A stretch of 64,000 nucleotides of DNA from Stegostoma tigrinum (Eukaryota): positions 16,273,286-16,337,285 of the forward strand of contig NC_081364.1 of assembly GCF_030684315.1 (NCBI RefSeq), written 5' to 3'. The notes under the pieces are model-generated. The model was not told where the DNA came from. It worked only from the letters and a program-made list of their open reading frames with translations, and did not search any database. Both the position numbers and the translations under genes were made by a program. Positions 3,572 to 64,000 of this stretch are shown here, one piece after another (the first letter of the stretch is position 1; every line of letters starts with the position of its first letter).

Positions 3572-3789
3572 AGATAATAAAATGTGAGGCTGGATGAACA
3601 CAGCAGGCCAAGCAGCATCTCAGGAGCACAAAAGCTGACGTTTCGGGCCTAGACCCTTCATCAGAGAGGGTCTAGGCCCGAAACGTCAGCTTTTGTGCTC
3701 CTGAGATGCTGCTTGGCCTGCTGTGTTCATCCAGCCTCACATTTTATTATCCTGGAATCTCCAGCATCTGCAGTTCCCATTATCTCTGA
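3572..3789. mobile_element. Palindromic mini-PLE, family A
   Basis: About 85-bp perfect inverted arms plus a 40-nt tail; 16-bp TSD taatatgtacatttta. Confidence 0.9.
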
Positions 3790-5887
3790 TAATATGTACA
3801 TTTTAGTTTGTTTTATCAAATAAGAGTTTTTTTGCATAAGGAGAGGTGCATTTGTTTCATTAAACCAGCTCCAGCTTTTAAATTAAACTTAAAAGAGTAT
3901 AAATGTCTGCATATATTCAATTAGATTGTACAGTTATTTTCCATTTCTTGGGTTTTTATTTCATTTTAGCCACAGCAGCAATGAAGCAGAAGAACGTGAC
4001 AATCACAGCATGGCCAGATTGGAAATGTATGAGTATTGAGAGATTTCTAATTGCTACAAATCATTGGTTCTCTCGGGCTTGCCATTCATTCAAGTAACAG
4101 CTCTGATTTGTTATACCTTTGCTAACAGTACATTGCAAATGCATACTTATGAACTTTACCTAAGCATTGAATAGAGTATTAAATGATTCTACAGATAAAA
4201 TGTCACTGGCTCGAAAAAGTATGATATCAATATAACACCAATTAAACGAGTAAATTAATGGTTATCTCAAAATCATACTGTGAAAAAATATTTTATTTGT
4301 ACCCTTTTGAATACCTGATGTAATTATTTTAATCCATGCACCTCAGAAATGAAAATGTTCTCTACTTTAGGAGTAAACATTGTGAAGTATCCAAACACAT
4401 CAGTGACCATAGCCATCCTAAGCTCAAGTATCACACTGTTTCCCGCCACTCCCCCACCTCCCACCATCACCATCTTGTCAAGCTCGATCAACAAAACATT
4501 TTTAAGACATCTTACCATTGTACCTCAAGCACTGCTGTTATTAGACTGTTGAGACCCAGACTTTGGTTTCAAATGTGCAATCATGATCAACTTCTGAATG
4601 ACATAAATCATTTCCTCCCACACTTTAAAAGCATGGCTGAGCAGGGATAATGTTCAAGTGTACATATTATAGCAGGGAATTGAAACTAGGCCAGTCGATT
4701 GAAGGGCTTGATCCATGACTCTTTCTTCGAACAGGTGACCTATACTCAATTCCCTGTTGCAGCATATGTTTTTGTAGATTACTGATTAATTAGATTATAG
4801 GTAAAGATAAAAGGACAATTTTAGTGGGCAAGAGTTTTTTTTGTATGGCCTCTGATGCACCAACACTTGTATTCAGTTAAGAGCCTCTCACCGTTTGGAT
4901 TGGAAATACATTCAAACATGCTGTTGAAGAGAAATACACTTCACCATCATTTTATGGTAATAACATGCTCAAAATAGATGTCCAGCAAGAGTCCACTTGT
5001 GTTTGCCTCATACCTAAAAATATTTCGGTATAATTTGAAACCTTTAATATATACACTTATTCATTCATTATGGTCTAAGTGTATTAAATGATGAGAGTTA
5101 GAGCAATCACATACCCTTGGGCAAAACAGCTTGCATGGTGTTGCTAGAGGTTTTTATACTGAATATCATCATTTTATTTTATCACGATCTAACAACTGCT
5201 GCTAGGGAAAAACAACCTAACTATCCAGCTGTCTTTCCAGAAAAAGAGCGACCAAATATTTACTGTGGAATGATTTACTGTAGAATGTATCACAAGGCAT
5301 AATATTCCAGCCTGCAATGTAAGTTCTTTTCCATATTTACTTCAATTTATAGTTTTCTCCTGTGTGTGTCTTTTTTCTCATATGCCATCCCATCATAAAT
5401 AGGATGGCAAATGATGCACTCCTAGACAACTGTCAGCAGTGCTGTGTAACTGGAAAACACACAAAAACCAAACCAGAACCACTTTTCCCTCAATATTCTC
5501 CCACACCTTCTGGGAAATTGCCTCACCTCAAGTGCATTTTTCATCTTTTAAATTTCCCAGCCAAGGTCATGAATGCAATATATGCAGATTTACACAATAA
5601 ACCTGCATCTACCCACTCAATGATATAGTGTACTTGACACACCTGTGTATTAGGTCACTGGGAAATATGTGAGAGCTACTCTCTGGGCTTGTCCTGCTGA
5701 TTTTGCTTCTCTCCTTCCCTCCGTAAGAAGGGAGTTTGAAACACCAAACCGCACTTCCTCCAGACAGTTTTTCAATCCTGCTCACCACAGTGTGCTACTA
5801 TTATCATTATTCATTTTAAACTTTAAACTGGGTGAAATTTAAAGTAAAGTAAAATTATTTATTCACTAATGAATATAAATATAGATT

Positions 5888-6090
5888 TGCTCAGTTGGCT
5901 AGGTGACTAGCGTGTGGTGCAGAATAAAGCCAATAGCATAGGTTTAATTCCCATATTGGATGTATCAATTCATGGAGGCTGGCCTTTTACCTCAACCCAT
6001 GCTTGTAGAGGGGTTACCTTCAAGCTATGCGCAACTGTTTCTCTCTCTCTCTAATGGAGGAAGATGCTAAATGTCCCTTGTGAATAATAG
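5888..6090 (+). mobile_element. Degenerate tRNA-derived SINE
   Basis: gctcagttggctagg A-box-like and ggtttaattcc B-box-like motifs. Confidence 0.45.
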
Positions 6091-6946
6091 CTCCTTCCTT
6101 CCACAAGTGAATTCTTTTGATTTCTTCTCTCTTTCTTTCACCTTTAAATAGTTTAGCTGCAGGGTAGCTGATAATCTCCCACCCACTGCTTTTGCCCGCA
6201 CCCAATCCAAAAGGTACCAGGTTTGTTAGTAGATGCATGCTGGTAACAGCTGCCAACCTGAGAGGTAGTAGGGAGTGACAAGTAACCTTCCTGTCTGATG
6301 TTGAAAGATATTGGAGAGGGTTCCTTCCTCCAAACACTACCCAACAACCCTTACTAGACATGCATGAATATTGGTTGATGAGCTAGGATCAGATTTGGTT
6401 AATGCTCCTACAAGTATAACATAGAACATAGAACAGTACAGCATGGTACAGGCCCATCAGCCCACAATGTTGTGCCAACCTGTTATCCTACTAAGATCAA
6501 ACTACCCTGCATACCCTATGTTTTACTATTCTCCTTGTGCTTATCCAAGAGTTGCTTAAAAGTCTCTAAAGTATCTGACTCCACTACTACTGCCAGCAGC
6601 GCATCCCACGCACCCACCATTCTCTGTGTGAAGAACCTACTTTTGACATCTCCCCTGTACCTTCCTCCAATCACCTTAAAATTATGCCCCCTCTTAATAG
6701 TCATTTCTGCCCTGGGAAAATGTCTCTGGCTATCCACTCTATCTATGCTTCTCGTCATCTTGTACACCTCTATCAAGTCACCTCTCATCCTTCTTCGCTC
6801 CAATGAAAAAAGCCCTAGCTCCCTCAACCTTTCCTCATAAGACCTGCCTTCCAGCCCAGGCAGCATCCTGGTAGGGTAGGTCAGTCCTTAGTAAGGGGCT
6901 CACCTTTGTCCCCCTACAACCACACATCAACGAATACCAGTCACGG

Positions 6947-8956
6947 TTGGACATAGAGCAGTTTTTCCGCCGTCTTCGCCTCCATGCCTACTTCTTCAAC
7001 CGGGAACCTAACCCTCCCTCCACTGACCCCTTTACCCGCTTCCAACACAAGTCCTCCCCCTGGACACCACCCCCAGGCCTCCTAGCCTCCCTCGACCTCT
7101 TCATTTCCAACTGCCGTCGAGACATTAACCGCCTCAACCTCTCCACCCCTCTCACCCACTCCAACCTCTCCCCCGCAGAACGGGCAGCCCTCCGCTCCCT
7201 CCGCTCCAACCCCAACCTCACCATCAAACCCGCAGACAAGGGTGGCGCAGTGGTAGTATGGCGCACTGACCTCTACATCGCCGAGGCCAGACGCCAACTC
7301 TCCGACACCACCTCCTACCGCCCCCTCGATCATGACCCCACGCCCGAGCACCAAACCATCATCTCCAACACCATTCACGACCTCATCACCTCAGGGGACC
7401 TCCCACCCACAGCCTCCAACCTCATTGTTCCCCAACCCCGCACGGCCCGCTTCTATCTCCTTTCCAAAATCCACAAACCTGCCTGCCCTGGTCGACCCAT
7501 CGTCTCAGCCTGCTCCTGCCCCACCGAACTCATCTCCACCTATCTGGACTCCATTTTCTCCCCTTTGGTCCAGGAACTCCCCACCTACGTCCGTGACACC
7601 ACCCACGCCCTCCACCTCCTCCAGGACTTCCAATTCCCTGGCCCCCAACACCTCATCTTCACCATGGACGTCCAGTCCCTATACACCTGCATTCCGCATG
7701 CAGATGGCCTCAAGGCCCTCCGCTTCTTCCTATCCCGCAGGCCCGACCAGTCCCCGTCCACCGACACTCTCATCCGCCTAGCTGAACTCGTCCTCACCCT
7801 CAACAACTTCTCTTTTGACTCCTCCCACTTCCTACAGACTAAGGGGGTGGCCATGGGCACCCGCATGGGCCCCAGCTATGCCTGCCTCTTTGTAGGTTAT
7901 GTGGAACAGTCCCTCTTCCGCACCTACACAGGCCCCAAACCCCACCTCTTCCTCCGGTACATTGATGACTGTATCGGCGCCGCCTCTTGCTCCCCAGAGG
8001 AGCTCGAACAGTTCATCCACTTCACCAACACCTTCCACCCCAACCTTCAGTTCACCTGGGCCATCTCCAGCACATCCCTCACCTTCCTGGACCTCTCAGT
8101 CTCCATCTCAGGCAACCAGCTTGTAACTGATGTCCATTTCAAGCCCACCGACTCCCACATCTACCTAGAATACACCTCCTCCCACCCACCCTCCTGCAAA
8201 AATTCCACCCCCTATTCCCAATTCCTCCGCCTCCGCCGCATCTGCTCCCATGATAAGACATTCCACTCCCGCACATCCCAGATGTCCAAGTTCTTCAAGG
8301 ACCGCAACTTTCCCCCCACAGTGATCGAGAACGCCCTTGACCGCGTCTCCCGTATTTCCCGCAACACATCCCTCACACCCCGCCCCCGCCACAACCGCCC
8401 TAAGAGGATCCCCCTCGTTCTCACACACCACCCTACCAACCTCCGGGTACAACGCATCATCCTCCGACACTTTTGCCATTTACAATCCGACCCCAATACC
8501 CAAGACATTTTTCCATCCCCACCCCTGTCTGCTTTCCGGAGAGACCACTCTCTCCGTGACTTCCCCTACAGCATCCCTAAACCAGCCCAGTTCGTCCCCT
8601 CCCCCCACTTCACCACACAACCAGCCCAGCTCTTCCCCCCCACCCACTGCATCCCAAAACCAGTCCAACCTGTCTCTGCCTCCCTAACCGGTTCTTCCTC
8701 CCACCCATCCCTTCCTCCCACCCCAAGCCGCACCCCCATCTACCTACTAACCTCATCCCACCTCCTTGACCTGTCCGTCTTCCCTGGACTGACCTATCCC
8801 CTCTCTACCTCCCCACCTATACTCTCTCCACCTATCTTCTTTACTCTCCATCTTCGGTTCGCCTCCCCCTCTCTCCCTATTTATTCCAGTTCCCTCTCCC
8901 CATCCCCCTCTCTGATGAAGGGTCTAGGCCTGAAACGTCAGCTTTTGTGCTCCTGA
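6947..8956 (+). CDS. PLE reverse transcriptase ORF (669 aa; C-terminus frameshifted by an internal deletion near 8560)
   Basis: Motifs KPADKGGAVVVW, GRPIVS, TMDVQSLYT, QTKGVAMG, RYIDD, FLDL. The frame is open upstream to about 6880. Confidence 0.85.
   Translation: MDIEQFFRRLRLHAYFFNREPNPPSTDPFTRFQHKSSPWTPPPGLLASLDLFISNCRRDINRLNLSTPLTHSNLSPAERAALRSLRSNPNLTIKPADKGGAVVVWRTDLYIAEARRQLSDTTSYRPLDHDPTPEHQTIISNTIHDLITSGDLPPTASNLIVPQPRTARFYLLSKIHKPACPGRPIVSACSCPTELISTYLDSIFSPLVQELPTYVRDTTHALHLLQDFQFPGPQHLIFTMDVQSLYTCIPHADGLKALRFFLSRRPDQSPSTDTLIRLAELVLTLNNFSFDSSHFLQTKGVAMGTRMGPSYACLFVGYVEQSLFRTYTGPKPHLFLRYIDDCIGAASCSPEELEQFIHFTNTFHPNLQFTWAISSTSLTFLDLSVSISGNQLVTDVHFKPTDSHIYLEYTSSHPPSCKNSTPYSQFLRLRRICSHDKTFHSRTSQMSKFFKDRNFPPTVIENALDRVSRISRNTSLTPRPRHNRPKRIPLVLTHHPTNLRVQRIILRHFCHLQSDPNTQDIFPSPPLSAFRRDHSLRDFPYSIPKPAQFVPSPHFTTQPAQLFPPTHCIPKPVQPVSASLTGSSSHPSLPPTPSRTPIYLLTSSHLLDLSVFPGLTYPLSTSPPILSPPIFFTLHLRFASPSLPIYSSSLSPSPSLMKGLGLKRQLLCS
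8561..8670 (+). repeat. About 39-bp tandem repeat x3 inside the PLE (also at 56180-56290)
   Basis: Repeating aaccagcccag..cccc..cccac unit; encodes NQPSSSPPPTAxx in the intact frame. Confidence 0.75.
8912..8942 (+). ncRNA. Minimal hammerhead ribozyme motif in the PLE terminus
   Basis: CTGATGA-A-GGGTCTAGGCCT-GAAAC-GTC-AG. Minimal hammerheads are established features of PLE termini. Activity is untested. Confidence 0.65.
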
Positions 8957-9676
8957 GATGCTGCTTGGCCTGCTGTGTTCATCCAGCCTCACATTTTATT
9001 ATCTCAGCATCCTGGTAAATCTCCTCTGCACCCTCTCTAAGTTTTTCACATCTTTCCTACAATGAAGTGACCAGAACTGAACACAATATTCCAAGTGTGA
9101 TCTAGCCAGAATGTTACAGAGCTACAGCTTAACCTCAGGGCTCTTGCATTCAAATCTCCTGCCATAAAGATTACTTGTGTACATTACTGTATCAGAGGAT
9201 GAGTTTTACCCACAAAGTTGTATTCCAGCAAACAATTAATCCATTCAGGAGATGAAGACCAGAAGAAAAATGGAGGATATGAAGAAAAAGGTCCTTTTAT
9301 CACCTTATTTTGAATTTTGAGGTACCACATAGTGGAGAAAACCTGCTGCAAACATTATCTTGAGAGTTGGAAGTGGATAAAGTGAAAAAGTGAGTTTAAA
9401 ACCTGACACAACATCTGTTACATTAGAAAATCCATATTAGTTTTAACATTATCTATGATATTGATACAACTATAGATGGAGAGGTGCTCAATTACTCCAC
9501 TTATTTTAGCTAAATTATAAACACACTCTGCTTGAACTGGAAGAAGGCATGATGTTGACATAACATGGAGCTGCACCATGACAAAAGCACCCACATGATT
9601 TTTCAGGGTCTCCCAACATGAAATCTGCCTGCCTCTTACTTTGCACGCATAAATAATTTAACTCACAAATTTGCTT

Positions 9677-14630: not shown

Positions 14631-16210
14631 TGTAACGAGGTTGGCCAGATGAACCTCATAAAATATGAGTTCTATGATTGGGGGTGTTAATCTGGTCCAA
14701 TCAGGGAGTCCTGGCTGACAGATAAGAACAGGCATGTCAGACGTTCTATTTACTCAGAGAACTGGCTCTGAGGGACCTGGATCAGTGGTTAAGTACTCTC
14801 CATGTGTAAATAAAGATTGACTGAGTGATGTGACTCCAGCCTCTTTGGTGTTATTTCAGTGATGGTGAGAGAAAAGCACCTGTACAAATTATAAGCATTC
14901 CTTGCAAAAAGTTGTCATTATTTGGATAGCTTGAGTCATTCGACCCTGCCATCAAAGACTGGGTCCAGTGTGCGGAAAGAATGAGTTACTTTTTCGGGCA
15001 AATAACATTGGGTAAACAATTAGGAATTCTCCTGACACTTGTGAACTTCTAGATTTTTCAGTTATTATGAGTCTGACTTTCCTTGAGGCTCCTGGAACCA
15101 AAACCTTTCAAGAATTGACAGATTTAATTAAGGAATATTATGACCCCAAGCCTTCTCTAATTCTGAGTTGCTATTAGTTTTACCAGTACCAATATGAGAA
15201 CCAGAAGAATCCATAATGGGATTTTTGATGAAAATGACTGCCAGAGGCATGTAACTTTGGTTTAATTCTTAATGAGATGCTGAGAGACTGTTTGGTGTGT
15301 GGGATTAATCATGCAACCATGCAAAAGTGCCTACTAGCTGAAGTCCAACTCGACTTCATACAGGCACTACAACTGGGTTTATAATTGGAAAATGTGGGAA
15401 GTAGAGCATGAGTTGTTAGGTATTCTATGGGAGTGGACCCCCTCGCCTGAGCTTGCAGAACACGACTTGAATGAAAACAATTGCATAGCCACACGCAGGG
15501 CATATCCTGAACAGAGGAACTCCAGACCAGCCTGCAGCAAAACCCCAAAACAAAACTGTGCATTGGCCAAAAGGTTAAAATTTCTTTAGGATCTGGCTGG
15601 TAAGCCATTGTAGTTGCTGCCCATATGCACACTCGAGACTACAAAATTATCCCAATAAACCTAATGTGAGTGAGGGAACTCATAGGCCAGTATCTAGTTG
15701 AATGGACATCATGGAAATTTCACCTTCATCTGGTTTGCATTGACTTTTTAAAAAGAGTCATGCTTGAAAGTGAAACCCGAAAGAACTGCGGATGCTATAA
15801 ATCAGAAAAAAAAACAAAGTTACTGGAAAAGCACAGCAGGTTTGGCAGCATCTGTGAAGGCAAAAACGGAGTTAACGTTTCAGGTGTGGTGACCCTTCCT
15901 CAGCCTTGAAAATAGTTGTGCAGGCAAGCTTTGGCAATCAGGGAAGTGAAGAAACAGATATTACCCTTTAAGATGTTGACAGACTTTGATCCCAGGCAAG
16001 ATCAGGTATTGACATGTAATGCCTCCCCATAACGGTATCGGTATTAGTTCGCAGGTGGCCCAATGGAGAGGAATGTGCAATAGCATATGCATCGAGAGTT
16101 TTAGCTAATGCAGCGTGTAAATGTGCCTGGAAAGAGAAGGACTACTTGGAAGTCACATTTGGAATCAGGGAGTTCCACCAATATCTTTACAAATGTAATT
16201 TTGTAATAAT
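14631..16210 (+). mobile_element. Degenerate Gypsy (Mag-like) LTR element: 5' LTR 14631-14858, gag, RNase H fragment
   Basis: TG..CA LTR containing AATAAA. gag remnants FDPAIKDWVQCAERMSYFF and LNEMLRDCLVCGIN; RNase H remnant AIAYASRVL. Interrupted by a family C PLE end at about 15775-15903. Confidence 0.75.
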
Positions 16211-17900: not shown

Positions 17901-18107
17901 AGATAATAAAATGTGAGGCTGGATGAACACAGCAGGCCCAGCAGCATCTCAGGAGCACAAAAGCTGACGTTTCGGGCCTAGACCCTTCATCAAGGCCCGA
18001 AACGTCAGCTTTTGTGCTCCTGAGATGCTGCTGGGCCTGCTGTGTTCATCCAGCCTCACATTTTATTATCTTGGATTCTCCAGCATCTGCAGTTCCCATT
18101 ATCACTG
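17901..18107. mobile_element. Palindromic mini-PLE, family A
   Basis: Inverted arms that share a private variant (ggcccagcagc); TSD caaatttata. Confidence 0.9.
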
Positions 18108-18129: not shown

Positions 18130-21100
18130 GACTAATCCCACTAGCTAAGACCCAGCACACCCAGTCTAGGTTTCTTGGAACATGCAATTTCTGATTAAAA
18201 ATGTGAGCAAGAAATCTGCCGTTTTGTGACTAGTGAAGTAGGTGATGATAGCTAGAGGGTGACCTCTCTGCTCGTTTGCAATCTATTATGGTGCAAATCC
18301 CTTAATCACCACTTGGGGCCTCTACTGTCTATATTTGGTCAGTTTGGCACCACATCATATAAATAAAGAGTGGTCAGTACTTCAACGCAACATAGCATTG
18401 TGTTTTAGGAAAAAAACAGGTCAGGAAATACTTGTGGAAGAGAAACAACATTAATGACTGAAATTGTTTGTGGTCTTTGCGGTTGGGCCGATAGGTGGGA
18501 GGGTTGGCAACTGCCTGGGAAGGCATCGGGGGTCTGTAGAATGTCTTCTAGCTGCCATGCCATGTTGCCAGTGGCAGGAATGTTGGTGCCCACTGTGAGA
18601 CCAATTGAACAACTCAAGTAGCCTCCCACTAAAGGGGAGAATGCCCTGTGAAACCTCCCACTCAGCTTCAGGAAGCCCACCATTATGGGCAATTCATGAC
18701 CCATGGAGAGACCCATAAGTGGCAGAAGAAGTGAATGCACCTTTGCCAAGTTTTGTGGATGACCCAGAAATAGGTGGGAAGGAAGTGGTGAGGATGAAAC
18801 AGAATCTTTACAAAATGGAACTGGGATATAGTCTCCAACAATCCCAGTTATCAACACGTTGACCTTCATTGCACTGTTTGGAGGAAAAACAAAATTCTCT
18901 TCAAGAAGAGAGTGTGTTGCCCCTGTATCTCTTAGAAAAATTATAGGCATGGCTTCTTCTTTTGAAGAGAAAGGGGTTAACAGCCTTTTGCAAAAACATA
19001 TCTCTCATCTACCTCAATACTACTGCCTTCAAAAGAATTGCTCCAAGCCACTCACCATCCTGATTCGGAAATATATCGCCCTCCCTTCACTGTCCCTGGT
19101 TCAAAATCCTAAAATCCCGTCTGAAATGGCATTGTGGGTCAGCCCACAGCAGGTTCAAGAAGGCAGCTCACCACCATCTTCTCAAGGACAACATGGGATG
19201 GGCAATAAATGCTGGCCAGCCAGCGATACCCACATCCTATGAATGAATTTTTACAAAAGTACTTTCTCTGTACTCACAGCACTGTCTGCCTCTGGCCTAT
19301 TATTGCAGCTAAAACTACAATGCCATCTCCGATAGGTCAGTGTGTTTTCTCCTCAATATGAATAAATATGTTTCACCTTTTTAGAATGAAAACACTTCAG
19401 CTTCTAATTTCCATCTCCACTCTCACTACTTTCCCCTTTGACCTAAGGGGGAGACTTTCAGACATTCCCAGCTATACAGCTATTTACCGTGGCTACTTTC
19501 TTTCCTGTCACTCTCCCATTTTCTATCCTTTTGAATTTAAAATGATTAGCTCATAATCATCGGCCATTATTACTGCCTGTCTAGCAATTGCTGCAATCTT
19601 TTAGTTCTTAATGCAAGTTCTTATTATGGAAGGTCATGTGTTTTGCAATTCTTTTGAGAGAATTATCTCACTGAAAGCTTCATAGGTGGTTTCATCCTCT
19701 GAAGCTCACATCCATCTGTTAAAATGACTGTACTTAACCCTTTCAAATTCAATATAGGTTTGTCCAGGCTGTGTCCTTATATTCTAAAATCTTTGTCTAT
19801 ATGCCTCAGGCACTAAAATGTATGCAGGCAATGTAATTTTCTTTATTGCATCATAATCCCGGGAACCTTCTCTGATAGTGAAGCATTAATTTCCTCTGCC
19901 TTACCTGTCAACTTAATTTGTATGAGTGATGTTCAGTTCTCTTTTGTCCAATTCATTTGTCCAGCTACTTTCTGGTGTCATGAATAATGCGTGCACATCC
20001 TTTTCTTCAAGTTTTGGTGGACCCTATGTAAACTTTGCATATTTCCTTACTGGAATTCAAATCATGACTCAGATTCTCCCCATTAGGGACGAAATCAATA
20101 TCTGATGTCTCCTATTCCAATAGCATGATTTTAACTTAAACTCACATACCATCACTTTCTGAGATAGTAGGAGCTGCAGATGCTGAGGAATCTGACATAA
20201 CAAGGTGTAGAGCTGGATGATCACAGCAGGCCAATCATGATCAATTTTTTTTGCTTTTTCTGAAGAAGGCCCGAAATGTCAGCCTTCATGTTCCTCTGAT
20301 GCTGCTTAGCCTGCCGTGATCAACCAGCTCTATACCTTGTTATCTCTGCCTTCACTTTCTCTTCTGTTTCCATTTCTAATTCTAGTTTTGTCCATTTCCT
20401 TGTCTTCTTCATTCTTTCTCATTTCTTAAACTTTTTTTTGCTTTCTCTGCCCTTTTCGTCCATTTGGAATTACATCTCAAGCTATTTAATTCCCTCCTCA
20501 TGTTCAAGCTCCTTTAACTGTAACCAATTGTCACTCGATTCTGATGTTTCAGTATCCCGTGTACCTGTCCACTCTTTTATTTCCAATAAATCCATGTGCT
20601 GTGCCAAGCTGGTACCTCAATTATTTCTGCCTTCCTTGCTTTACCAGCTCCTGTTTACTTGCCAAGTCGATCAACTTATCGAAGAAGAAATTCTCCTACC
20701 TGCAGGAAATTCTTTGCCATTTCTTAAATGCAATACAGACCTGGTGTTTTCCTTCACCTGTATTATTTATAATACCACTGCCAAATCCTTGCTATCTCTA
20801 TTTTATATCTATCTTAGATGAGCCTCCAAATGTTGTTATGTCTTACTGGGATAGCATGCTGGCAATGGAATCCTGACATACATGGTGTTGGCACAGTAAT
20901 TAAAAATATGTAGAATTCCCCAATTTACCTTATTTTCAGACTCAGGTTAACAGAAAGCACAGACCAGATTTCTGTATTTAATAAGAATGACTATTTATTA
21001 CAGTAGACTCTAGATAAGCAATTATGACCCATCTAGTAGTTAAAACTCTAATTCCTTTATAAACTCCCCTTACTCACACAAAAAAATGGTTGTCATGGAC

Positions 21101-24492: not shown

Positions 24493-25648
24493 AAAAACTG
24501 AAAGAACTGCAGATGCTATAAATCAGCAACAAAAACAGAAGTTTCTGGAAAAGCTCAGCAGGTCTGGCAGCATCTGTGGAGAAAGAATCAGAGTTAATAG
24601 TTCAGGTCCGGTGATTCTTCCTCAGAACTGAGGTTCTGGGGAAGCATCACTGGACACAAAACGTTAACTCTGATATTTTTCTCCACAGATGCTGTCATAA
24701 GACCATAAAACATTGGAGTGGAAGTAAGGCCATTCGGCCCATCAAGTCCACTCCGCCATTTAAATCATGGCTGATGGGCATGTCAACACCACTTCCTTGC
24801 ACTCTCCCCGTAGCCCTTGCTTCCTTCTGAGATCAAGAATTTGTCGATCTCTGCCTTGAAGGCATCCAACGTCCCAGCCGCCACTGCACTCCGTGGCAAT
24901 GAATTCCACAAGCCCACCACTCTCTGGCTGAAGAAATGTCATCTCATTTCAGTTTTAAATTTACCCCCTCTAATTTTAAGACTGTGCCCACGGGTCCTAG
25001 TCTCCCCACCTAACAGAAACAACTTCCTAGCGTCCACCCCTTCTAAACCATACATTATTTTGTAAGTTTCTATTAGATCTCCCCTCAACCTTCTAAACTC
25101 TAATGAGTACAATCCCAGGATCCTTAGCCGTTCATCATACGTTAAACCTACCATTCCAGGGATCATCCGTGTGAATCTCCGCTGGACACGCTCCAGGACT
25201 AGTATGTCCTTCCTGAGGTGTGGGGCCCAAAATTGGACACAGTATTCTAAATGGGGCCTAACTAGAGCTTTATAAAGCCTCACAAGCACATCGCTGCTTT
25301 TATATTCCAAACCTCTTGAGATAAATGACAACATTACATTCGCTTTCTTAATTACGGACTCTGCCTGCAAGTTAACCTTTCGAGAATCCTGGACCAACAC
25401 TCCCAGATCCCTTTGTATTTCTGATTTGTGAATTTTCTCACCATTTAGAAAATAGTCTATGCCTGTATTCTTTTTTCCAAAGTGCAAAACCTCACATTTA
25501 CTCACATTGAAATTCATCAGCCATTTCCTGGACCACTCTCCTAAACTGTCTAAATCTTTCTGCTGCTTCCCCACCTCCTCAATACTACCTGCCTGTCCAC
25601 CTATCTACGTATCATCCAGACCCATTAAACTTTTCCAGCAACTTCTGC
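24493..25648. mobile_element. Palindromic mini-PLE, family C (24493-24694 and 25617-25648), split by a CR1
   Basis: The arm cacagatgctg|ccagacc is interrupted; TSD atcatcatt. Confidence 0.75.
24695..25616 (-). mobile_element. Young CR1 3' part (RT C-terminal ORF 24939-25574)
   Basis: [31 protein letters not shown]; (ttatgg)n-like tail. Confidence 0.9.
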
Positions 25649-27270: not shown

Positions 27271-27358
27271 TTTCCTGGCAATGGGTTAAAGTTTTGCCGT
27301 AAAGCTCTCAGAATATTTCAGGCAGGTTGGCTTTCTCAACCATCACGGTCAAAAACCT

Positions 27359-39916: not shown

Positions 39917-40796
39917 TTAATTCGGTTATACCTTCTTTCTCTTTCCTCTGACACATTTTGAGAATATTTGTTTCAACATGAGGGATTATAACGCATTCGT
40001 GGAAGAAATGGTTGAGATGACTTACTGAGTTTGACAGTGTGAAAGACCCCTGTTGTGTTCCACTACACAGATGCACAGAAATGCAGTGAGATGTAAGGAA
40101 TATTTTCTTGTGATCAGAGAAGTTGGTCAGACAAGCAGGGAGTAAATGTACAATGACTTAGGACAAATTTCTTCTGTGCATTGTTATTGGCAGCATCTAT
40201 ATGCAGCATTGTTTAAGTGTTGCAATGCCTATCCAATTCCAACAATTCAAATCAAATTGATCAACACATCATCAGTCATGCCTCAAAATGACCAATTATA
40301 TTTATGTTGCAATGAAACTGTGAGATTTATATCAATGCATTTTAATATAGTTTGTGGCAAGTTTGGGGTCTTGAAATTCTACCTCCAATTTACTGGTTTT
40401 GTCTGTGTACTTGAAGTTAACAATTGGCTTTTTAAACTACAATACCCATAATTCTAACGATGGTTTCTAGGGAACTATCCAAAGGAATGAATGGGAGAAT
40501 TTTCCCTTTCAGTCTGTGCTGGGAAGGTGTTTGAGAGGGAAGCATGGATCAAGCTACAAAGTGCTGAGAAGTTTTTTGGTGGGGTAACATGTGCTAAGCA
40601 GTGTTTTTATGAAAAGGATTTTATAGGAATGGAATTATTTTTGAATAAGAAGTTATTATTAATCCCTGGCCAGTGTGTTGGGTTACAGTAGGAGATAAAG
40701 AAATGAAGTTAAGTTTTTAAAGTATTTTAAACAAAAAAAAAGTTGTGTTAAAGACAATATAGCACTGGGAGGAAACTGAGTAAAGAGCATAACAAT

Positions 40797-47550: not shown

Positions 47551-49269
47551 ATCTTGATTGGGTCAGATGCATCCTTCAGTCTTGCTCTTGATAGTCTGAG
47601 TAATTCTGTCTATTTAAGCAATGTAGCTTGTACCTATTGCTACCATGGAATCAACTACATCTTACTGTTCAGGCATGTATTTCTTTTTGGTATGACTCAT
47701 CAACAAATAGTTCATTCTCTACTACTGTTCATCAAGCAGGGTCTTCAACCTAGTATAGAAAGGAGGATTGAGTGGGATTTGTCTACCCCAACCATTAGAT
47801 GTTTGTGGTTGCTTATTCACCACATACCTTAAGAATGGCATGTGTAGTGAGTACTGGATCACTGTGTCTTCCGAAGTTAGTTGATTCAGTCCTTGGCTGA
47901 GGCAGAGATTGAACCATACTAAAGATACTAAAAAGTGCCAATTAATCAGACTCAGGAGTGACTGTGGTCTCTTGGATTAGTTTTGATTACTTAGTGTGAT
48001 CAAAGAAAAGTGTTCCATAATTGTCCTCCAAACTTGGCTTTTCTCTTCTAGAAGACTACATGATGGGCCTCTTGAAACTGTACTCAGAACAAAGAACTGT
48101 CCAGGATATGCTAAGTGATCTGCTGGTCTTTCCTTATTTGGTAAATTTTATTTTACGTGTTCACACTATTATTGTTTTAAATGACACCATCTGGTTAATT
48201 CTGTACAACAGGGTTATTAATTGCAGTTCTATTTTTATTTTGTCCCTTGATTTTTACTCCTTTACTTGTTGGCATTTTTTTAGTTTTACCTCCCCCACAA
48301 TCCATTCCCAAACCAAACCTGTGGGGAGGTAATCTATTTACAAAGAACACATGTGCCTTTATTAGAAGTGCCTATCAACCACATGTTAACTCTATGGTTT
48401 CTGCAGAGTTATCATGAATGTTTTTCATTTAAATACATCATTACAGAAGTGGAACATGTATATTTTCAATATTTGATCAAGGGCCAATATGAGAAAAGCA
48501 TACAATTGGCATGCTCACGCTGTACCCTGATCACCCGAAGGTTATATATATGGTGTTGTGATGCAGTTTCTTTGATCTGTGTTGCATCATCTAACCTTGG
48601 CCACAGCAACAGTTTGGGCATCAAGTTCCTTGGTTTCTTATCTTTGGAATGTTTGTGGGTGGGGTTGATGGATAAAAATCAGCCAGTTAATTCAACAACT
48701 CTTGTTGGAAAATGTACTCATATTTCTCCAAAAATACATATATATATAAATATGTATCTCAAGGAAAATGTGCCAAAATAACCCAAAAATAAGTAGAACA
48801 AAAAAAAATTACAAAGCTAAGTTACTAAGGAATATAAAAATAGTCAAGCTGCATACAGAGTCTTTAGTAACAAAAAGTAGGGAATCGATATGGCTGCTAA
48901 GGGATACCTATGATAAATTAACAAGTAATGACCGCAAATGGCAGGCTTAGTAAGTAATTACCTTTCCTCAATACCAACAGGATGGACACAAATTAAGAAG
49001 GGATCAAAAATGCTGTTTGGTACTGGTCATGTTTCCAGTTGATCCCAGAAGGAAATATGGCCTGAAAGATTGGATGTTGTATTTTCTTAAATTTAATGTG
49101 GTGGTCTTTCACTGAAACATGAGCATAAAGGTCTAGTGATTTGGTTTCAACAATAAAAACAAAAATAATATTTTAAAAATTAAATAAAATGAACCAAGCT
49201 ACCTACAAATCATATTGTCTGAAATATTTTAAAAAAACACACCAATACAAAATGCAATCTATTCTCCAA

Positions 49270-49458
49270 CACAAAGTGTAGAGGGGGATGAACACAGCAG
49301 GCCAAGCAGCATCATAGGAGCAGAAAAGCTGACGTTGCGGGCCTAGACCCTTCAAATGTCAGCTCTTCTGCTCCTAAAATGCTGCTTGGCCTGCTGTGTT
49401 CAGCCAGCTCCACACTTTGTTCTCTCAGATTCTCCAGAATCTGCAGTTCCTATTGTTT
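49270..49458. mobile_element. Palindromic mini-PLE, family B
   Basis: Inverted arms plus tail; TSD ctattctccRacac. Confidence 0.8.
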
Positions 49459-50695
49459 CTATTCTCCGACACCTTCACTTTACTGTTCATCAAAAACCAG
49501 AGACATTCTCCTTCCCTGTCCAAAATGTAGGTTTCTCTTAGCTGCTCCTCAGTTGAGCTAGAACGCCTACACATCTGAGAGTTTGGGCTTTCTCAGTCCT
49601 TGAATAACTTGCAGAGTACTAACTAAGCAACCCTGGTTTGAAATTTTCACAAACCACATGCTCACTCTCACTGTTACTGAGGTAACTCAGTCCCTTAACC
49701 AGTGTGAACAATCACCTTTTCTATGTAAGGTCATATTTTTTCTGACCTGATTTAAGCTCGCTTTCTTCATGTCAAAAATTTAATAGAGAAAGGAATTCTG
49801 CCACAGGAATGGGGCACAGCTAAATTGATTCCTATAAATGAAAAGATCAAACAAGTCCAGGAAACAAAAGACTTAACAAGAGACTTTATATTGGCTGAAG
49901 AAAAAAATAATGGAATCCTTACTCAAGGATGTAACAGAACAACATCTAAGGACCAAATTTCTAATAAGGGCATATCAGCACAGATTCTAAAAGGAAAGGC
50001 CATGCTTGACTAACAAAGAACATAGAACAGTATAGCACAGGAACAGGCCCTTCAACACACCATGTCTGTGCTGTAGCTTATTGAATTGTTTTAAAAATGC
50101 CTGTAGGGTAGGTAAAGAAAATGCAGGAAACATAATATATTTGGACTTATAAAAAACCTTTGATAAGGTATCATAAAGTAGGCTCATAAGGTCAGACCAC
50201 AAGGAATCAGAATACCAGTAGCAGAATGGATAGAATATTGCCTGTAAAAAGAGTACAGAAATTAGGGATGAAATGCAGTTACAATTATTTTGCAGATGGT
50301 GGCAAATAGGATCGCAAGACGAATAATGTCTGAACTACTATTGCTCACAGCTTACATAAATTGTTGGACTCTGGAATCAGCATTACAGTTGCAAATCTTG
50401 CAACTTACACAAAATTTGAAGGTTGGGGGTTCAGTTAATACAAAGTAAAACTAAAATAAAATGCAAGAAAACACCAATAAACTTGTAATATGGGTGTATG
50501 ATTAGTAAATGAACTTTATGTAGCTAGGTATGAGGGTATATAATTTAGTAGGAAGAATAAGCAACAAACGTGCTTCTTGGAAAATAAGCCCTGAAATGAG
50601 GTCGAACAACTGCAGGATCTGGAATCAACTTACAGGTCATTCAAAATAGAACCATATTTAATGAGATCAGAACAAAAAAAAGCTCTGGATGCATT

Positions 50696-50908
50696 GACAT
50701 AACAACGTGTAGATCTGGATGAAAACAGCAGGCCAAGCAGCATCAGGGGAACAGGAAAGCTGATGTTTTGGGTCTAGACCCTTCTTCAAAAAATCTGGCT
50801 TTTTGAAACATCAGTTTTCCTGCTCCTCTGATGCTGCTTGGCCTGCTGTGTTCATCCAGCTCCACACCTTGTTATCTCAGATTCTCCAGCATCCGCAGTT
50901 CCTCCAAT
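50696..50908. mobile_element. Palindromic mini-PLE, family B, inside an old CR1 (about 50100-51020)
   Basis: 13-bp TSD ctctggatgcatt. Confidence 0.82.
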
Positions 50909-51237
50909 CTCTGGATGCATTTCTGTGTTGATACATTTAAAATGTTGAGAAATTCTATTAGTTTTGTACAAAACAATACACAGACTACACTTGGCATAAT
51001 GGGGCAGTTCTGTCCTTGATACTGGGCTAGTTTTTTAAAAAATGGATTCAAATTTCATCACCTGCCATGATGGACTTAAATCCATGTCCCCAGAACATTT
51101 GGTATTACATGTCCAGTGACATTACTACTAAGCCACCGATTCCCTTTGAAAACAGAGTTAGATAAAAAGGGGCAGGACGAGGTTCACATAGACCGTAAGT
51201 GTGGGCAAATGTTCAGTTCTTATGCTGTATTTTCTAA

Positions 51238-51819: not shown

Positions 51820-52087
51820 CAAAACACAAACAAAGACAGAACTTGCCGGAAAAGCTCAGCAGGTCTGGCAGCAACTGTGGAGAGAAATCAGAGTTAATGT
51901 CTCAGATTCAGTGACCATTTCTCAGAATTGCAAGCTCATTTAGCCTCCGATTCTTACAAAGGGTCACTGGACCCAAATCACCAACTCGGATTTCTCTCCA
52001 CAGATGCTGCCAGACCTGCTGAGCTTTTCCAGCAATTTCTGCTTTAGTTTCTGATTTCCAGCAATTTGCACTCCTTTCGGGTTTTAT
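51820..52087. mobile_element. Palindromic mini-PLE, family C, about 35 bp from the first coding-exon donor
   Basis: Inverted arms plus tail; TSD ttagtcttcc. Confidence 0.8.
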
Positions 52088-54764: not shown

Positions 54765-54768
<4 letters not shown>

Positions 54769-54799
54769 ATGTGCGTGATTGGCCCAATAAATTTGGGTT

Positions 54800-54910
54800 A
54801 GGAACAAAATCAGAAGTTGCTGGAAAAGCTCAGCAAGTCTGGCAGCATCTGTGAAGAAAAAGGTCAGAGTTTACGCTTCGGGTCCGATGACCCTTCCTCA
54901 GAACTGATGG
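54800..54910 (-). mobile_element. Single-arm mini-PLE, family C
   Basis: Minus strand reads agttCTGAGGAAGGGTCATCGGACCCGAAGCGTAAACT, a hammerhead-like motif. Confidence 0.75.
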
Positions 54911-55805: not shown

Positions 55806-56857
55806 ATCAGAGATAATGGGAACTGCAGATGCTGGAGATTCCAAGATAATAAAATGTGAGGCTGGATGAACACAGCAGGCCAAGCAGCATCTCAGGAGCA
55901 CAAAAGCTGACGTTTCGGGCCTAGACCCTTCATCAGAGAGGGGGATGGGGGGAGGGAACTGGAATAAATAGGGAGAGAGGGGGAGGCGGACCGAAGATGG
56001 AGAGTAAAGAAGATAGGTGGAGAGGGTGTAGGTGGGGAGGTAGGGAGGGGATAGGTCAGTCCAGGGAAGACGGACAGGTCAAGGAGGTGGGATGAGGTTA
56101 GTAGGTAGCTGGGGGTGCGGCTTGGGGTGGGAGGAAGGGATGGGTGAGAGGAAGAACCGGTTAGGGAGGCAGAGACAGGTTGGACTGGTTTTGGGATGCA
56201 GTGGGTGGGGGGGAAGAGCTGGGCTGGTTGTGTGGTGCAGTGGGGGGAGGGGATGAACTGGGCTGGTTTAGGGGTGCAGTAGGGGAAGGGGAGATTTTGA
56301 AGCTGGTGAAGTCCACATTGATACCATATGGCTGCAGGGTTCCCAGGCGGAATATGAGTTGCTGTTCCTGCAACCTTCGGGTGGCATCATTGTGGCAGTG
56401 CAGGAGGCCCATGATGGACATGTCATCAAGAGAATGGGAGGGGGAGTGGAAATGGTTTGCGACTGGGAGGTGCAGTTGTTTGTTGCGAACTGAGCGGAGG
56501 TGTTCTGCAAAGCGGTCCCCAAGCCTCCGCTTGGTTTCCCCAATGTAGAGGAAGCCGCACCGGGTACAGTGGATGCAGTATACCACATTGGCAGATGTGC
56601 AGGTGAACCTCTGCTTAATGTGGAATGTCATCTTGGGGCCTGGGATGGGGGTGAGGGAGGAGGTGTGGGGACAAGTGTAGCATTTCCTGCGGTTGCAGGG
56701 GAAGGTGCCGGGTGTGGTGGGGTTGGAGGGCAGTGTGGAGCGAAAAAGGGAGTCACGGAGAGAGTGGTCTCTCCGGAAAGCAGACAGGGGAGGGGATGGT
56801 GGGGTCGGATTGTAAATGGCGGAAGTGTCGGAGGATAATGCGTTGTATCCGGAGGTT
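55806..56857 (-). mobile_element. Neptune PLE family A, 3' part with GIY-YIG endonuclease and full tail
   Basis: CNRRKCYTC Cys linker followed by FTCTSANVVYCIHC..C..LYIGETKRRLGDRFAEH (GIY-YIG). The 3' region is near-identical to 8560-9004. Confidence 0.92.
55906..55936 (-). ncRNA. Minimal hammerhead ribozyme motif (CTGATGAAGGGTCTAGGCCCGAAACGTCAG), sense to the host pre-mRNA
   Basis: Intact core boxes, GGGT/GCCC stem II and palindromic ACGT in place of stem III. Confidence 0.7.
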
Positions 56858-57836
56858 GTTCTGCTTTAGAAGTGGGTGTCTGAAGATTTGAACACTATGA
56901 GTAGTGAGATATGCAGCTGGGAATCCGCCTTTATCTGCATTATGAAAAGGAGGATGACAAGGACACATTGCAGTGTTGGACTGGTAAACGAGTGTGAGAC
57001 AATGTCAAAGATTGTTGCAGACAACTGCAATGATGCATTTGTATCTATTCTACAGAAATTATTTGACCTTGCAACTACACTTAAATTTCATGATATTTCA
57101 AAGATTCACTTTCTTGACGAATCTCTCTTTCCTTAATATTTCTATTGTCGTCCTCACTTTAATTATCCTCTCAAATGTAGGTTCCATCTCTTTAACATTA
57201 AACATCTATCACCAAGAAACTGGGATTTCTATTCTCTGAGGCTTCTCATTCTATTACACGCAAGTTCTAAAAAGGTATTACTTCTGCTCCCTAAACTCTC
57301 ATGATTGAAATCTGAATTCATCACACCTGGTACTCATCCTTTCTCAAATCTCAAAACTATGCAATGTATCTATTTTTGCTTTCAGTACAGATTCTAGCAT
57401 CTGCAGCAATTTGCTCCGGCAATATATCACCTTCTGTCAACTCTTTCTCCAGTGATCGAGGTAATTTTTAAACTCCAGCCTTGCCATCAGTTTTCTATAG
57501 TTGTATTACCCTCGCCTCCTTATGTTTTTGAAGTTTGGTAGTTTTCCTTCACTGTGGCTTTATCTTTTTGAGAACTGATCTCCGAACAAAGCTAGATAGT
57601 ATTTACTGAATACAAGACTAACAAAAGCAAACTAATAAATGGTGAAGAGAGAGAGAACTTACTGTATCATCCACTGATGAGATTGTGAATCCTCCCTGCT
57701 TTTGGAGTAACATGATGTGTAACAACATGCTAGTGTATCCAGAGATGGCCTGAATTCCCCGTTTTTGTTTGAAAACCCGTTCTTTACAAAAGCAAGTGGA
57801 ATGTACTGTTTAACAAGCTCCTGAAAGACTTCTTAC

Positions 57837-58860: not shown

Positions 58861-58864
58861 ACGT

Positions 58865-61133: not shown

Positions 61134-63870
61134 GGGGAGGCAATGGCCTTGTGGTATTATAGCTAGACTATTAATCCAGGAAACTCAGCTCATGCTCTGG
61201 GGACCTGGTTTCAAATTATGGAATTTGAATTCAATTTTTTAAAATCTGGAATTAGAAATTTAGTGATGACAGTTAAACCACTGCCAATTGTTGGAAAAAC
61301 CCATCTGACTCATTAATGCCCTTTAAGAAATGAAATCTGCCATCCTCATCTGGTCTGGCCCACATGTAACTCCAGATCTACCCTCAACTGCCCCTCTGAA
61401 TGATCTAGCAAGCCACTCAGTTGTATCAATTGCTATGAAGTATCAACAAAGAAATGAAACTGGACAGACCACCTGTTATCAAACTAGACACAGGAAATGA
61501 CAACAGCAAAAGTAGCCCTGTTGGCCCTGAAAAGTCCTCATCCCTAACATCTGAGGGCTAGTGTCAAAATTTGGAGAGCTGTCTCACAGACTAGTCAAGC
61601 AACAGTCTAACATAATCATACTCGCGGCATCATAACTCACAGCCAATGTTCCAGACACCAGCATCACCATCTCTGGGTATGTCCTATTTCATTGGCAGGA
61701 CAGACCCAGCAGAGGTGGTGGTACAATAATATACAGTTGGAAGGGAGTTGTCCTGGACCTTCTGAAGTCTCATGACATCAAGTTACATGTGGGCAAAGAA
61801 AGCTCCACATACCATCCTTCCTCAGTTGTTTCTCCATGTTGAACAATACTTGGGACAAAGCACTGAGGGTGGCAAGAGCAGAATATATAATCTGGGTGGG
61901 GTCTTAAATGTCCACTACCAAGATTGGCTTGGCAGCTGCATGATTGATTGAGTTGGTTGGGTCCTAAAGGACATAGCTGCTAGACTCGTTCTGTGGCACG
62001 TGGTGAGGGAAACAACAAGAGAGAAAACCATACTTGACCCCATCCTTACAAATTGGCAGATACATCTTTCCATGAAATTATCGGTAAGAGTGACCACCAC
62101 ACAGTCCTCATAGACTCAAAGTCCCACCTTCACATTGGGAGTACCATCCATTGTGTTGTGTGGCACTGTCCTCATGCTAAATGGGACAGACTTCGATCGC
62201 AGCTAACAACTCAAAACAGAGTATCCATGGGGTACTGTGGGCCATCAACAGCAACAGAATTGTACTCCAGCACAATCTACAACTGTGGCCTGGCATATCC
62301 CTATTCTATAACTACCGTCAAGCCAAGGGGTCAGCCCTGGTTCAATTGAGTTTGCAGGAGGGCATGTCTGGAGTAGCACCAGCCATACATAAAACTGTGT
62401 GATAGAGCTAAGCTTTCAGAACCAACAGATCTGATCTAAGCCCTGCAATCCTGCCACATCCAGTCATGAATGGTGGTGGACAATTAAACAACTCACTGGA
62501 GGAATAAGCTTCACAAATATCCCTATCCTCAATGATGGAAGATCCAAACACATCAGTGCAAAAGATAAAGCAGAAGCATTCACGACAACCTTCAGGCAAA
62601 AGTTCCAAGTGCATGATCCATCTTGGTCTCCTCCAGTGGCCCATAACATCATAGATTCCAATCTTCAGCCAACTCGATTCACTACAGATGATATCAAGGA
62701 ATGGTGGAGGCAATGTATACTGCAAAGGTTATGGGTCCTGACAACATTCTGGCATTACTATTGAAGATTCCAGAATTTTCTGCACTCATTGCCACTGGCA
62801 TCTACCCAACAAGGTGGAAAATTGCTGAGGTACGGCCTGCTTTTTTAAGCAATCCAACCCAGCCGATTATTGCCTCCGTCAGTAATTGGCAAATGATGGA
62901 AGATGTTGTCAACAGTGCTACCAACAGAACATGCTCAGTAATAACTTGCTCAGTCATGCCCAGTTTAGGATCTGCCAGGGCCACTCAGCTCCTGACCTCA
63001 TTACAGCCTTGGTTCAAACATGGACAAATGAGTTGAATTCCAGAGGTGAGGTGAGACTGATAGCCCTTGACATCAAGGCTGCATTCAACAGAGGATGGCA
63101 GCAAGAAGCCTGAGCAAAACTGGAGTCAATGAGAATTGGGGGCAAAGTCTCCACTGTTTGGAATCATACCTGACACAAGATGGTCATCGTTATTGGAGGT
63201 CAGTCATCTCAGCTCCAGGGTCTCTCTGCAGGAGTTCATCAGGGTAGATCAAGCACCTTCAAGCCCAAGCACCTTCAGCTCCTTCATTAAATGACCTTCT
63301 CTCCATCATAAGGTCAGAAGAGGGGATGTTTGTCAAAGATAGCACAATGTTCAGCACCATTCGTGACTCATCAGATACTGAGGCAGTCCAAATTCAAATG
63401 GAACAAGATCTAGGCATTATCCAGGCTTGGGCTGGCAAGTGATAAGTAATTTTCACAACATACAGCTGCCAGGCAATGACTGTCACCAATAAGAGACAAT
63501 CTAACCACCAGTCCTTGATACAGAATTGTGTTACCATACTGGATCCACCACTGTCAACATCCTGGAGGTTACATTGACCACAAACTCAACTGGACTCACT
63601 ACATGAACCTAATGACTACAAGAGCAGGTCAGAGGATAGGAATCCTGTAACAAGTAACTCACCTCCTGACTCTCCAAAGCCTGTCCACCATCTACAAGGC
63701 ACAAGTCAGGAGTTTGATGGATTGCTCCTCGCTCACGAGGATGGGTGCAGCTCCAATACATTCAAGAAGCTTGATACCATCCAAGACAAAGCAGCCTATT
63801 TGACTGGCACCACATCCACAAATATCCAATCCCTTCACCACCGTCACTTTGTTGCAGCAGTATGTACAAT
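61134..63870 (+). mobile_element. Near full-length degenerate CR1-group LINE (family 2) with a tRNA-like 5' head; APE + RT pseudo-ORF
   Basis: Head TGGCCTTGTGG..ggtttcaaat; remnants NI*GLVSKFGELSHRLVKQ, IGKSDHHTV, GPDNI, WKIAEV, ALDIKAAFNR, SAGVHQG. Confidence 0.8.
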
Positions 63871-63877
63871 CAACAAT

Positions 63878-64000
63878 ATAATAAAATGTGAGGCTGGATG
63901 AACACAGCAGGCCAAGCAGCATCTCAGGAGCACAAAAGCTGACGTTTCGGGCCTAGACCCTTCATCAGATCATCTCTGATGAAGGGTCTAGGCCCGAAAC
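63878..64000. mobile_element. Palindromic mini-PLE, family A (runs off the window end)
   Basis: Arm, centre (atcagatcatctctgatg) and the start of the inverted arm, with hammerhead cores on both strands. Confidence 0.88.

Follow-up and report, generated by a model that had tools for sequence, protein, structure and literature searches.

Why does a 64,000-nt stretch of the Stegostoma tigrinum genome (contig NC_081364.1, positions 16,273,286 to 16,337,285; hereafter the window) carry so many ~200-bp palindromic units that fold back at a hammerhead ribozyme (HHR)? A reading made from the sequence alone placed such units at 3572, 17901, 28891, 33453, 39697 and 63878, with a single arm at 27359, described each as two head-to-head copies of the 3′ terminus of a Penelope-like element (PLE), and proposed a retrozyme-like, non-autonomous hairpin product whose length is set by the ribozyme hairpin or a short ribozyme-defined RNA. 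All seven places are real and are laid out as described: the units are 5′-truncated, inverted insertions of a young PLE, each consisting of an inverted copy, a ~37-nt tail and a target site duplication (TSD), with arms 97–100% identical to the 3′ end of an element encoding reverse transcriptase (RT). The short insertions, here called stubs, are best read as abortive but integrated products of the normal PLE reaction, formed by double priming on one RNA and run-off at its 5′ end, probably a transcription start site; we assign this reading a probability of roughly 0.5.

Element coordinates begin with position 1 at the tail end and rise towards the 5′ end. The ruler is a long copy at 55807–56858, such that position p equals the window coordinate minus 55806; the hammerhead 30-mer occupies positions 101–130 with C3 at 130, and ‘B n’ denotes n bases past the tail end, counted into the element body. 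The 30-mer has 10 matches in the window at up to three mismatches, versus none in 100 shuffles. The two arms of the window pairs are never equivalent, as one bears the ~37-nt tail from position 1–6 and the other begins at 35–44. In all six pairs at least one arm breaks in or beside the 30-mer, and most units have their own TSD (Table 1), both as the sequence-only reading had it. Inverted pairs exist at every length, with arms up to more than 2 kb (for example, 1047/1047 and 1176/1184).

The parent element is recognizable in longer copies (loci L006, L066, L068 and L069), which contain one open reading frame (ORF) that has the RT motifs DKG and RYIDD followed by a C-terminal GIY-YIG motif, VVY..YIGET. 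A Pfam search of this ORF returned RVT_1 with an E value of 1.5e-4, under the curated cut-off, and no GIY-YIG match. The linker between the RT and the endonuclease (EN) reads CNRRKCYTC, a CX4CxxC arrangement that fits the CX2-5CxxC pattern of Neptune elements, a motif common to Neptune and Nematis (Craig et al., 2021, PMC8557442). Upstream of the RT, the ORF carries 27-bp in-frame tandem repeats (TADADGTPP; L068:859-1022) whose number varies between copies. Two units are ~3.6 kb long, L071 with an upstream partial repeat and L072 with an inverted arm. The published layout of EN+ PLEs comprises an inverted pseudo-long terminal repeat (pLTR), an optional 31-bp tail and a TSD (Arkhipova et al., 2013, PMC3846280; Craig et al., 2021, PMC8557442), and the parent shares the partial-tandem pLTR, the inverted 5′-truncated copy and the tail on one end only.

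The hammerhead lies on the ORF sense strand, in the 3′ untranslated region (UTR). Judged against the available description of minimal hammerheads (Cervera and de la Peña, 2014, PMC4209133), the putative core contains CUGANGA and GAAA..UH, an extra base between 9 and 10.1, a G10.1–C11.1 pair and a palindromic 15.2–16.2. Helix I of 4–5 bp is absent from family A, the family of these units, in which it has 2 bp and a pairing probability of 0.0; it measures 4 bp by eye in the older family C, and the hammerhead of Drosophila virilis Penelope likewise has a 2-bp helix I (PMC4209133). The 30-mer is predicted to fold as a CUGAUG:CGUCAG hairpin with its foot at position 130 (−11.4 kcal/mol). An Rfam scan of the window gave 13 matches, all under the gathering score and none to a hammerhead (none at E ≤ 1). 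Twelve of these are microRNA families, and the weak precursor matches at 3620–3704, 33512–33606, 39785–39859, 49283–49409 and 50727–50847 merely reflect hairpins.

In the whole genome (3.2 Gb, 835 contigs), an exact 45-mer across the tail junction has 17,283 matches. Abundance was estimated from a random sample of 38 stretches of 10 kb (18 of 20 and 20 of 20 requested; 380 kb), in which 38 family insertions were counted at a threshold of at least 92% identity: 8 short pairs, 15 short singles and 15 long copies, so that 23 of the 38 are short. Extrapolation gives ~320,000 insertions of the young family (226,000–439,000) and ~67,000 short pairs (95% range 29,000–133,000). The suggestion that the hairpin product makes up most of the PLE output does not hold, since short palindromes are 8 of the 38 insertions in random DNA (~21–25%) and short arms contribute 4,130 of 20,029 family bases (~21%) in random DNA plus the window.

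The distribution of arm ends was determined for a tail-anchored set derived from the first 90 of the 100 listed matches to the 45-mer, which yielded 92 arm rows (one locus counted from both arms, four rows censored). The stop rate per base is 0.0036 at positions 57–127, 0.033 at 128–137 and 0.0011 at 138–400; 20 of the 92 arms end at 128–137 against 2.2 expected (p = 5e-13), and 51 run past 137. Of 63 arms from random DNA and the window combined, 23 end at 128–137, at a rate of 0.074 versus 0.001 beyond. Arm length does not decay smoothly from the 3′ end but peaks sharply by the hammerhead, as had been anticipated, and the peak is replicated in random DNA. Single-base resolution was obtained by eye from the first 100 matches listed per genome-wide pattern (all on contig C1), counting rows that truly leave the element and dropping those that were point variants of longer copies. 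Such rows (total matches in parentheses) number 62 at 133 (6,088), 79 at 134 (7,697) and 67 at 135 (4,816), compared with 17 at 101 (2,334), 32 at 102 (4,172) and 17 at 103 (2,419). In these by-eye tallies the mode is position 134, 4 nt upstream of C3 and ~30 nt from the predicted cut site, and it stands per Mb at 18 times background and 7 times position 102. The expected clustering at the hammerhead is therefore present, with the qualification that its main peak (133–135) falls on the motif's 5′ edge. As a consequence, the core is intact in most stubs, which cannot come from an RNA with a self-cleaved 5′ end.

A minor single-base peak does fall on the predicted cut site at 102, where there are 32 rows in 86.8 Mb, compared with 17 in 114.6 Mb and 17 in 116.8 Mb at its neighbours (2.5-fold, p = 2e-4; p = 0.03 without rows explained by microhomology). 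An earlier, smaller tally on the 92 anchored arms showed no such peak (3 versus 1.3, p = 0.14). The peak at 102 may be a genomic trace of hammerhead cleavage in vivo. Around these positions, an 8-nt direct repeat has copies 126 nt apart, at 55932–55939 (the 5′ edge of the hammerhead) and 55806–55813 (the tail end), and contigs join back over 123–133 nt between the two places. In runs X5 and X6, whose kind is unrecorded, one contig joint leads from cut-site position 102 (55908) back to the tail end at 55806 with one base between, and the largest pile of loose contig ends among those listed is at 55937 (position 131; 365 and 257 contigs). The two runs are perhaps from the same organism or sample and were not counted as independent, and contigs cannot show RNA ends.

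The way in which arms are paired indicates where the length is decided. Among the 92 anchored arms are 45 pairs of a tail arm with a tail-less arm, of which 23 have both arms ≤140, 21 have both longer and 1 is mixed, where 22 mixed pairs would be expected if the stops were independent. Within the long pairs, 8 of 21 differ by ≤15 nt against 0.66 expected, and in a set of 59 pairs minor alleles are common to both arms at 0.003 per site, which is 11–13 times the level of re-paired controls and above every permutation. Second passes through the region, after a tail-to-body junction (39 read by eye, 20 at risk), stop at 128–137 in only 1 of 20 (p = 0.035 and 8e-5), so the peak at 134 does not reflect a stop intrinsic to the RT. 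Tandem arrays reuse one upstream coordinate, in each round and in both arms. Taken together, the coupled lengths, shared variants, second passes and array reuse point to the arm end as a property of the template molecule. A stall of the RT on a long RNA, at the hammerhead hairpin or the upstream pyrimidine tract, would account for a peak that adjoins both features; given the scarcity of mixed pairs, the readthrough in 19 of 20 second passes and the same end offset in family C, which lacks the C-rich tract, we consider it very improbable.

Fold-back and self-priming of one cDNA (or of an antisense template; Arkhipova et al., 2013), followed by partial loss of the centre of the resulting perfect palindrome, would also account for shared variants and coupled lengths. 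Overlaps of 1–4 nt at 22 of 45 junctions are compatible with such an origin, and junction palindromes have been interpreted as self-priming on an antisense template (PMC3846280). Simple folding back of a hairpin is not supported by the pairs themselves: in 13 the tail arm is the longer, in 18 the tail-less arm exceeds it by as much as 1,248 nt, and 14 are equal within 3 nt, while several joins are blunt and without a loop (132/132, 134/134, 262/261, 672/673 and 1047/1047). A tail-less cDNA could not serve as template for a tail arm, nor could a shorter arm template a longer one, without later deletion of the centres, which argues for two primers. Self-priming would furthermore leave the limit at 134 unexplained, and the fixed start of the second arm at 35–44 matches the second of two RT start sites observed in vitro (PMC11167929); we regard it as a quite doubtful source of the pairs. 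Under double priming, the junctions would be joins between two cDNAs, and they are blunt, have 1–4 nt of microhomology or carry a few added bases, with gaps of −4 to +14 in 44 of 45 pairs. A miniature inverted-repeat transposable element (MITE) or other fold-back DNA transposon was considered and rejected, given ends that differ by the tail, a TSD of no fixed length (13–18 bp in 37 of 45 pairs) and the identity of the arms to the RT element.

What, then, fixes the template end at position 134? An RNA 5′ end at this base probably underlies the ~130-nt class, and it is an even call whether this end is the start site of an internal Pol II promoter. Two older families with different upstream sequence also end 0–6 nt upstream of C3, family B in 15 of 24 cases and family C in 15 of 17 (with L029 as reference; 24 of 27 with L172). 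Initiators follow the consensus motifs YYANWYY or TCT; in families B and C, the base at −4 is the A of a YYANWYY initiator (CCATTTC, TCAGTTC), and in family A it is a TCT-type C. The base after 134 is a C in 55 of 79 rows, compared with 22 of 62 after 133; an extra base of this kind reportedly arises from a copied cap, as in L1. One insertion (L257) carries a non-templated G 5′ of 134 in both arms, and a single-arm test for cap-derived G gave 16/27 versus 3/16 (p = 0.013), although only 9 of 26 loci ending at 134 have a TSD call and templated and added bases are inseparable in this test. A match to the downstream promoter element (DPE) consensus was also sought at +28 to +32 from 134 and was poor. 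An internal promoter with an initiator is described for D. virilis Penelope (PMC2377424).

A splice-site origin of the 134 end was rejected, as no AG precedes 134 in families A or B; the AG at 153–154 has two arm ends nearby (150 and 151) and no shared upstream exon. A 3′ splice-site-like sequence with a pyrimidine tract lies at 55959–55968, 23 nt upstream of the hammerhead core, and is found in family B too; family C has an AG 2 nt upstream of the core, and in D. virilis Penelope an intron ends at helix I (PMC4209133).

The same double priming could instead use RNAs trimmed to 134 by 5′→3′ decay, with the hammerhead hairpin or the footprint of a bound PLE protein as the barrier. This is the one setting in which the earlier proposal that the ribozyme hairpin sets insert length would hold, its other half, a self-cleaved short RNA, being excluded for most stubs by the retained core. 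The boundary tracks the core in three families, the bases −1 to −4 of family C form the 5′ strand of helix I, and array units show templates trimmed at both ends in many places (5′ at 130–300, 3′ at 36–274 nt past the tail). The predicted hairpin is weak, however, and is not predicted in family C, and a barrier would not account for initiator-like motifs on the same base in families B and C or for the extra C after 134. We therefore hold decay to a barrier to be unlikely.

Several observations weigh against run-off at a start site. Position 134 lies 4 nt from the foot of the predicted hairpin, so that these data also suit decay to a barrier. The meaning of the extra C is ambiguous, because partner arms also start with C and the addition is often CT. 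Family C does not show this C, and in family B the stubs end at −3 and continue with T. In 16 copies with a long body behind an upstream repeat (16 of 36 planned extra loci covered), the repeat is ≤137 nt in only 6 and ends at 128–137 in 1, so full-length copies do not derive mainly from a start at 134. The D. virilis start lies ~120 nt upstream of the hammerhead, with an intron between (PMC2377424; PMC4209133). Variants common to both arms could stem from gene conversion between them. Sample sizes are small, and the tail-anchored arms were all drawn from a single contig, within its first 12 Mb.

The remaining possibility is a retrozyme-like non-autonomous element whose propagating form, a short RNA cut by the ribozyme or a hairpin transcript, constitutes the main PLE product. 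The minor peak exactly at the cut site and the very high copy number speak for it, yet the main peak is 7 times higher per base and ~30 nt away, and short pairs are a minority of insertions. Junction coordinates are distinct in 32 of 34 short pairs, leaving no defined recurring unit, and the junctions 123/136, 128/131 and 130/134 occur with the tail on either side. Each strand of a palindrome has 0–1 sense cores, in place of head-to-tail repeats with at least two same-sense HHRs, and the palindromic RNA is predicted to form a ~92-bp duplex (−184.5 kcal/mol) with a helix II probability of 0. Of 23 short-pair loci, only 1 contains post-tail sequence (B1-15) anywhere. The palindromes are not retrozymes; the strong form of the retrozyme-like proposal is largely refuted, and we judge it extremely improbable.

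Head-to-tail HHR arrays do occur elsewhere in the genome, with units of the form [m..1]+B[1..n], 166–363 bp long, within two-armed insertions. One of them is a 329-bp unit (217..1 + B1-113) with one hammerhead per unit, whose 217/B113 junction has 71 exact matches at about 39 loci (counted by eye) on 24 contigs; examples are L251 (G000:C1:104860500-104863200) and L154. Arrays L251–L255 carry head-to-tail, same-sense HHRs, and from its sequence the 329-bp family classifies as retrozyme-type, non-autonomous and derived from the young PLE. Back-splicing was rejected as the origin of this unit, there being no AG acceptor at 217, and a forced dimeric hammerhead of two units is predicted to lie 17.6 kcal/mol above the minimum free energy (MFE), lending no support to an easily formed active fold. 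Arrays L252–L258, L169, L179, L163 and L164 (166–363 bp, 2–7 rounds) each lie in a two-armed insertion with the same junction in both arms, and look like the outcome of rolling-circle copying or of repeated end-to-end jumps. Several array 3′ ends cluster at B110–119. All array units seen contain post-tail sequence, consistent with the notion that renewed copying is impossible for stubs lacking it; stubs without sequence downstream of the tail are probably dead ends. L257 (G000:C1:124823900-124825100) comprises two adjacent insertions with the same target duplication and the junction B73-G-134 in both outer arms.

These results are compatible with the following mechanism. The endonuclease would nick both target strands ~14 bp apart, as the TSDs here suggest and as nicking by an Anolis element indicates. 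Each target 3′ end would then prime a cDNA on the same RNA, presumably a single molecule given the shared variants and coupled lengths, one starting at the tail end (position ~1–6) and the other ~37 nt further in (position ~38). Both cDNAs would reach the 5′ end of the RNA and be joined bluntly, by 1–4 nt of microhomology or with a few added bases, so that the head-to-head pair would be made anew at every insertion. For the ~130-nt class, the RNAs would have their 5′ end at 134 and the RT would start at the cap-proximal copy of the start sites, to give run-off products of 97 and 134 nt that resemble strong-stop DNA; templates beginning at the hammerhead cut site would be a minority. We infer by analogy that the Anolis in vitro results apply to the clade of the shark element. 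More broadly, and only tentatively, PLEs may make a strong-stop-like product, in which a dimeric RT, primed from both target strands at two tail sites, copies a capped 5′ leader starting 4 nt before the hammerhead in several shark PLE families, with ~10^5 cDNA pairs integrated; the genome would also record in vivo hammerhead cleavage as a single-base peak, and retrozyme-type head-to-tail families from the pLTR–ORF junction. If this is true, the start site, the cleavage rate and the origin of inverted pLTRs are readable from an assembly.

The features of the window are collected in Table 1. Beyond these, ends of the older PLE family C lie at 15773–15903, 24494–24631, 54800–54907, 51826–52063 and 1955–2129; their hammerhead is related (4-bp helix I), and they too are short and either single or paired. 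The tail alone, 42 bp, is inserted at 32466–32507. In the pair at 17901, one private variant is common to both arms; the tail arm of the pair at 63878 was completed with sequence beyond the window (L250). The first unit, both arms together, spans 3571–3790. In the ruler copy, the predicted hammerhead cut is between 55909 and 55908 (103/102). Other repeat families are found at 34405–35150, 3191–3374/63573–63756, 19153–19248/34219–34314 and 9935–10084/23943–24092 (an inverted pair 442 nt apart; dispersed copies 76–89% alike).

Table 1. PLE-derived features of the window, with extents in element positions where assigned.
Window coordinates	Strand	Feature	Element positions	TSD and remarks
3571–3670	−	Tail-less arm	37–136	Whole hammerhead core
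3667–3790	+	Tail-bearing arm	123–1	4-nt overlap with left arm; TSD 15–16 bp, 3556–3570 and from 3790
6879–9004	+	Long tail-less copy, young family	2616–945, 482–38	Internal deletion
17901–18107	.	Short pair	Tail-less arm 38–129, tail arm 116–6	TSD 9–10 bp (12 with one mismatch)
20158–20345	.	Older-family short palindrome, decayed		Approximate bounds
27358–27491	−	Single tail arm	1–133	TSD 11 bp
28891–29135	.	Pair, slightly older variant	Tail arm 1–105, tail-less arm 173–39	Imperfect TSD (8 exact)
33452–33642	.	Short pair	Tail arm 1–98, tail-less arm 129–37	TSD 14 bp, overlaps element end
39697–39918	.	Short pair	Tail arm 5–133, tail-less arm 129–37	TSD 14 bp
49262–49460	.	Older-family short palindrome		Approximate bounds
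50690–50913	.	Older-family short palindrome		Approximate bounds
55807–56858	−	Long 5′-truncated copy, young family (3′ UTR and GIY-YIG region)	1–1069	
55807–55843	−	~37-nt tail		Between two putative RT start sites
55907–55936	−	Minimal hammerhead motif		C3 at 55936 (130); topology after Cervera and de la Peña 2014
55938–55942	−	Breakpoint hotspot	132–136	Mode 55940 (134); candidate RNA 5′ end/transcription start
63878–64000	.	Short pair crossing window end	Tail-less arm 40–131, 3-nt spacer, tail arm 133–2	TSD 14 bp

The architecture of these insertions is already known, and we found no description of the sharply defined short class in a search that left subscription literature outside its scope. 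A known class produces these elements as an ordinary by-product, and they are not a new self-copying element. Their value lies in number, as ~320,000 insertions of one young family are enough to read a mechanism from junctions, and the origin of inverted pLTRs and tail and the role of the hammerhead stand as open questions in the published accounts (PMC3846280, PMC8557442, PMC11167929). Through the coupled arms, the inverted architecture can be connected with the two RT start sites known from in vitro work; the 134 peak amounts to a single-base prediction of a start site, and PLE priming, start site and hammerhead activity become testable to the base. In annotation, the stubs are liable to be mistaken for MITEs or for microRNA hairpins, and the roughly 10^5 perfect hairpins probably give rise to double-stranded RNA (dsRNA).

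In L1 twin priming, two target 3′ ends prime on one RNA, the joins show microhomology and the two cDNAs cover different parts of the RNA; retroviral strong-stop DNA is a short cDNA that is initiated close to the 5′ end of the RNA. The reaction proposed here differs from both, in that the two cDNAs overlap almost wholly and no tRNA primer or RNase H is involved. The inverted-pLTR insertions of EN+ PLEs are the closest counterpart, with head-to-head 5′-truncated copies, a 30–40 bp tail on one end, a TSD and overlap or palindrome at the junction, but the size class seen here, which is very abundant, lacks an ORF and ends preferentially at one base, was not found in the available portions of those reports (PMC3846280, PMC8557442). 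In vitro, the Poseidon element PAc of Anolis nicks and extends both strands, its tail is bounded by two internal RT start sites, and a shorter RNA 5′ end gives a shorter product; 172 nt of the ORF are required, mutations in the HHR have no effect, and no RNA-seq ends were reported at the cut site (Frangieh et al., 2024, PMC11167929). PAc belongs to another PLE clade, and the main text of that study gives no account of inverted pairs or of a short class. Schistosoma genomes contain opposite-strand pairs of minimal HHRs 100–700 bp apart along with dispersed single ones, that is, the same truncated PLE ends, single or in inverted pairs (Cervera and de la Peña, 2014, PMC4209133); breakpoint mapping was not found in the available text of that report, and helix I in family A is only 2 bp. 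Non-LTR retrozymes resemble the palindromes in being small, non-coding, HHR-bearing and PLE-derived, with TSDs of more than 4 bp (Cervera and de la Peña, 2020, PMC7229834; Li et al., 2026, bioRxiv 10.64898/2026.07.22.740005). Retrozymes are, however, head-to-tail repeats with at least two same-sense HHRs (PMC7229834; 10.64898/2026.07.22.740005), an organization from which the palindromes depart and which the 329-bp arrays fit.

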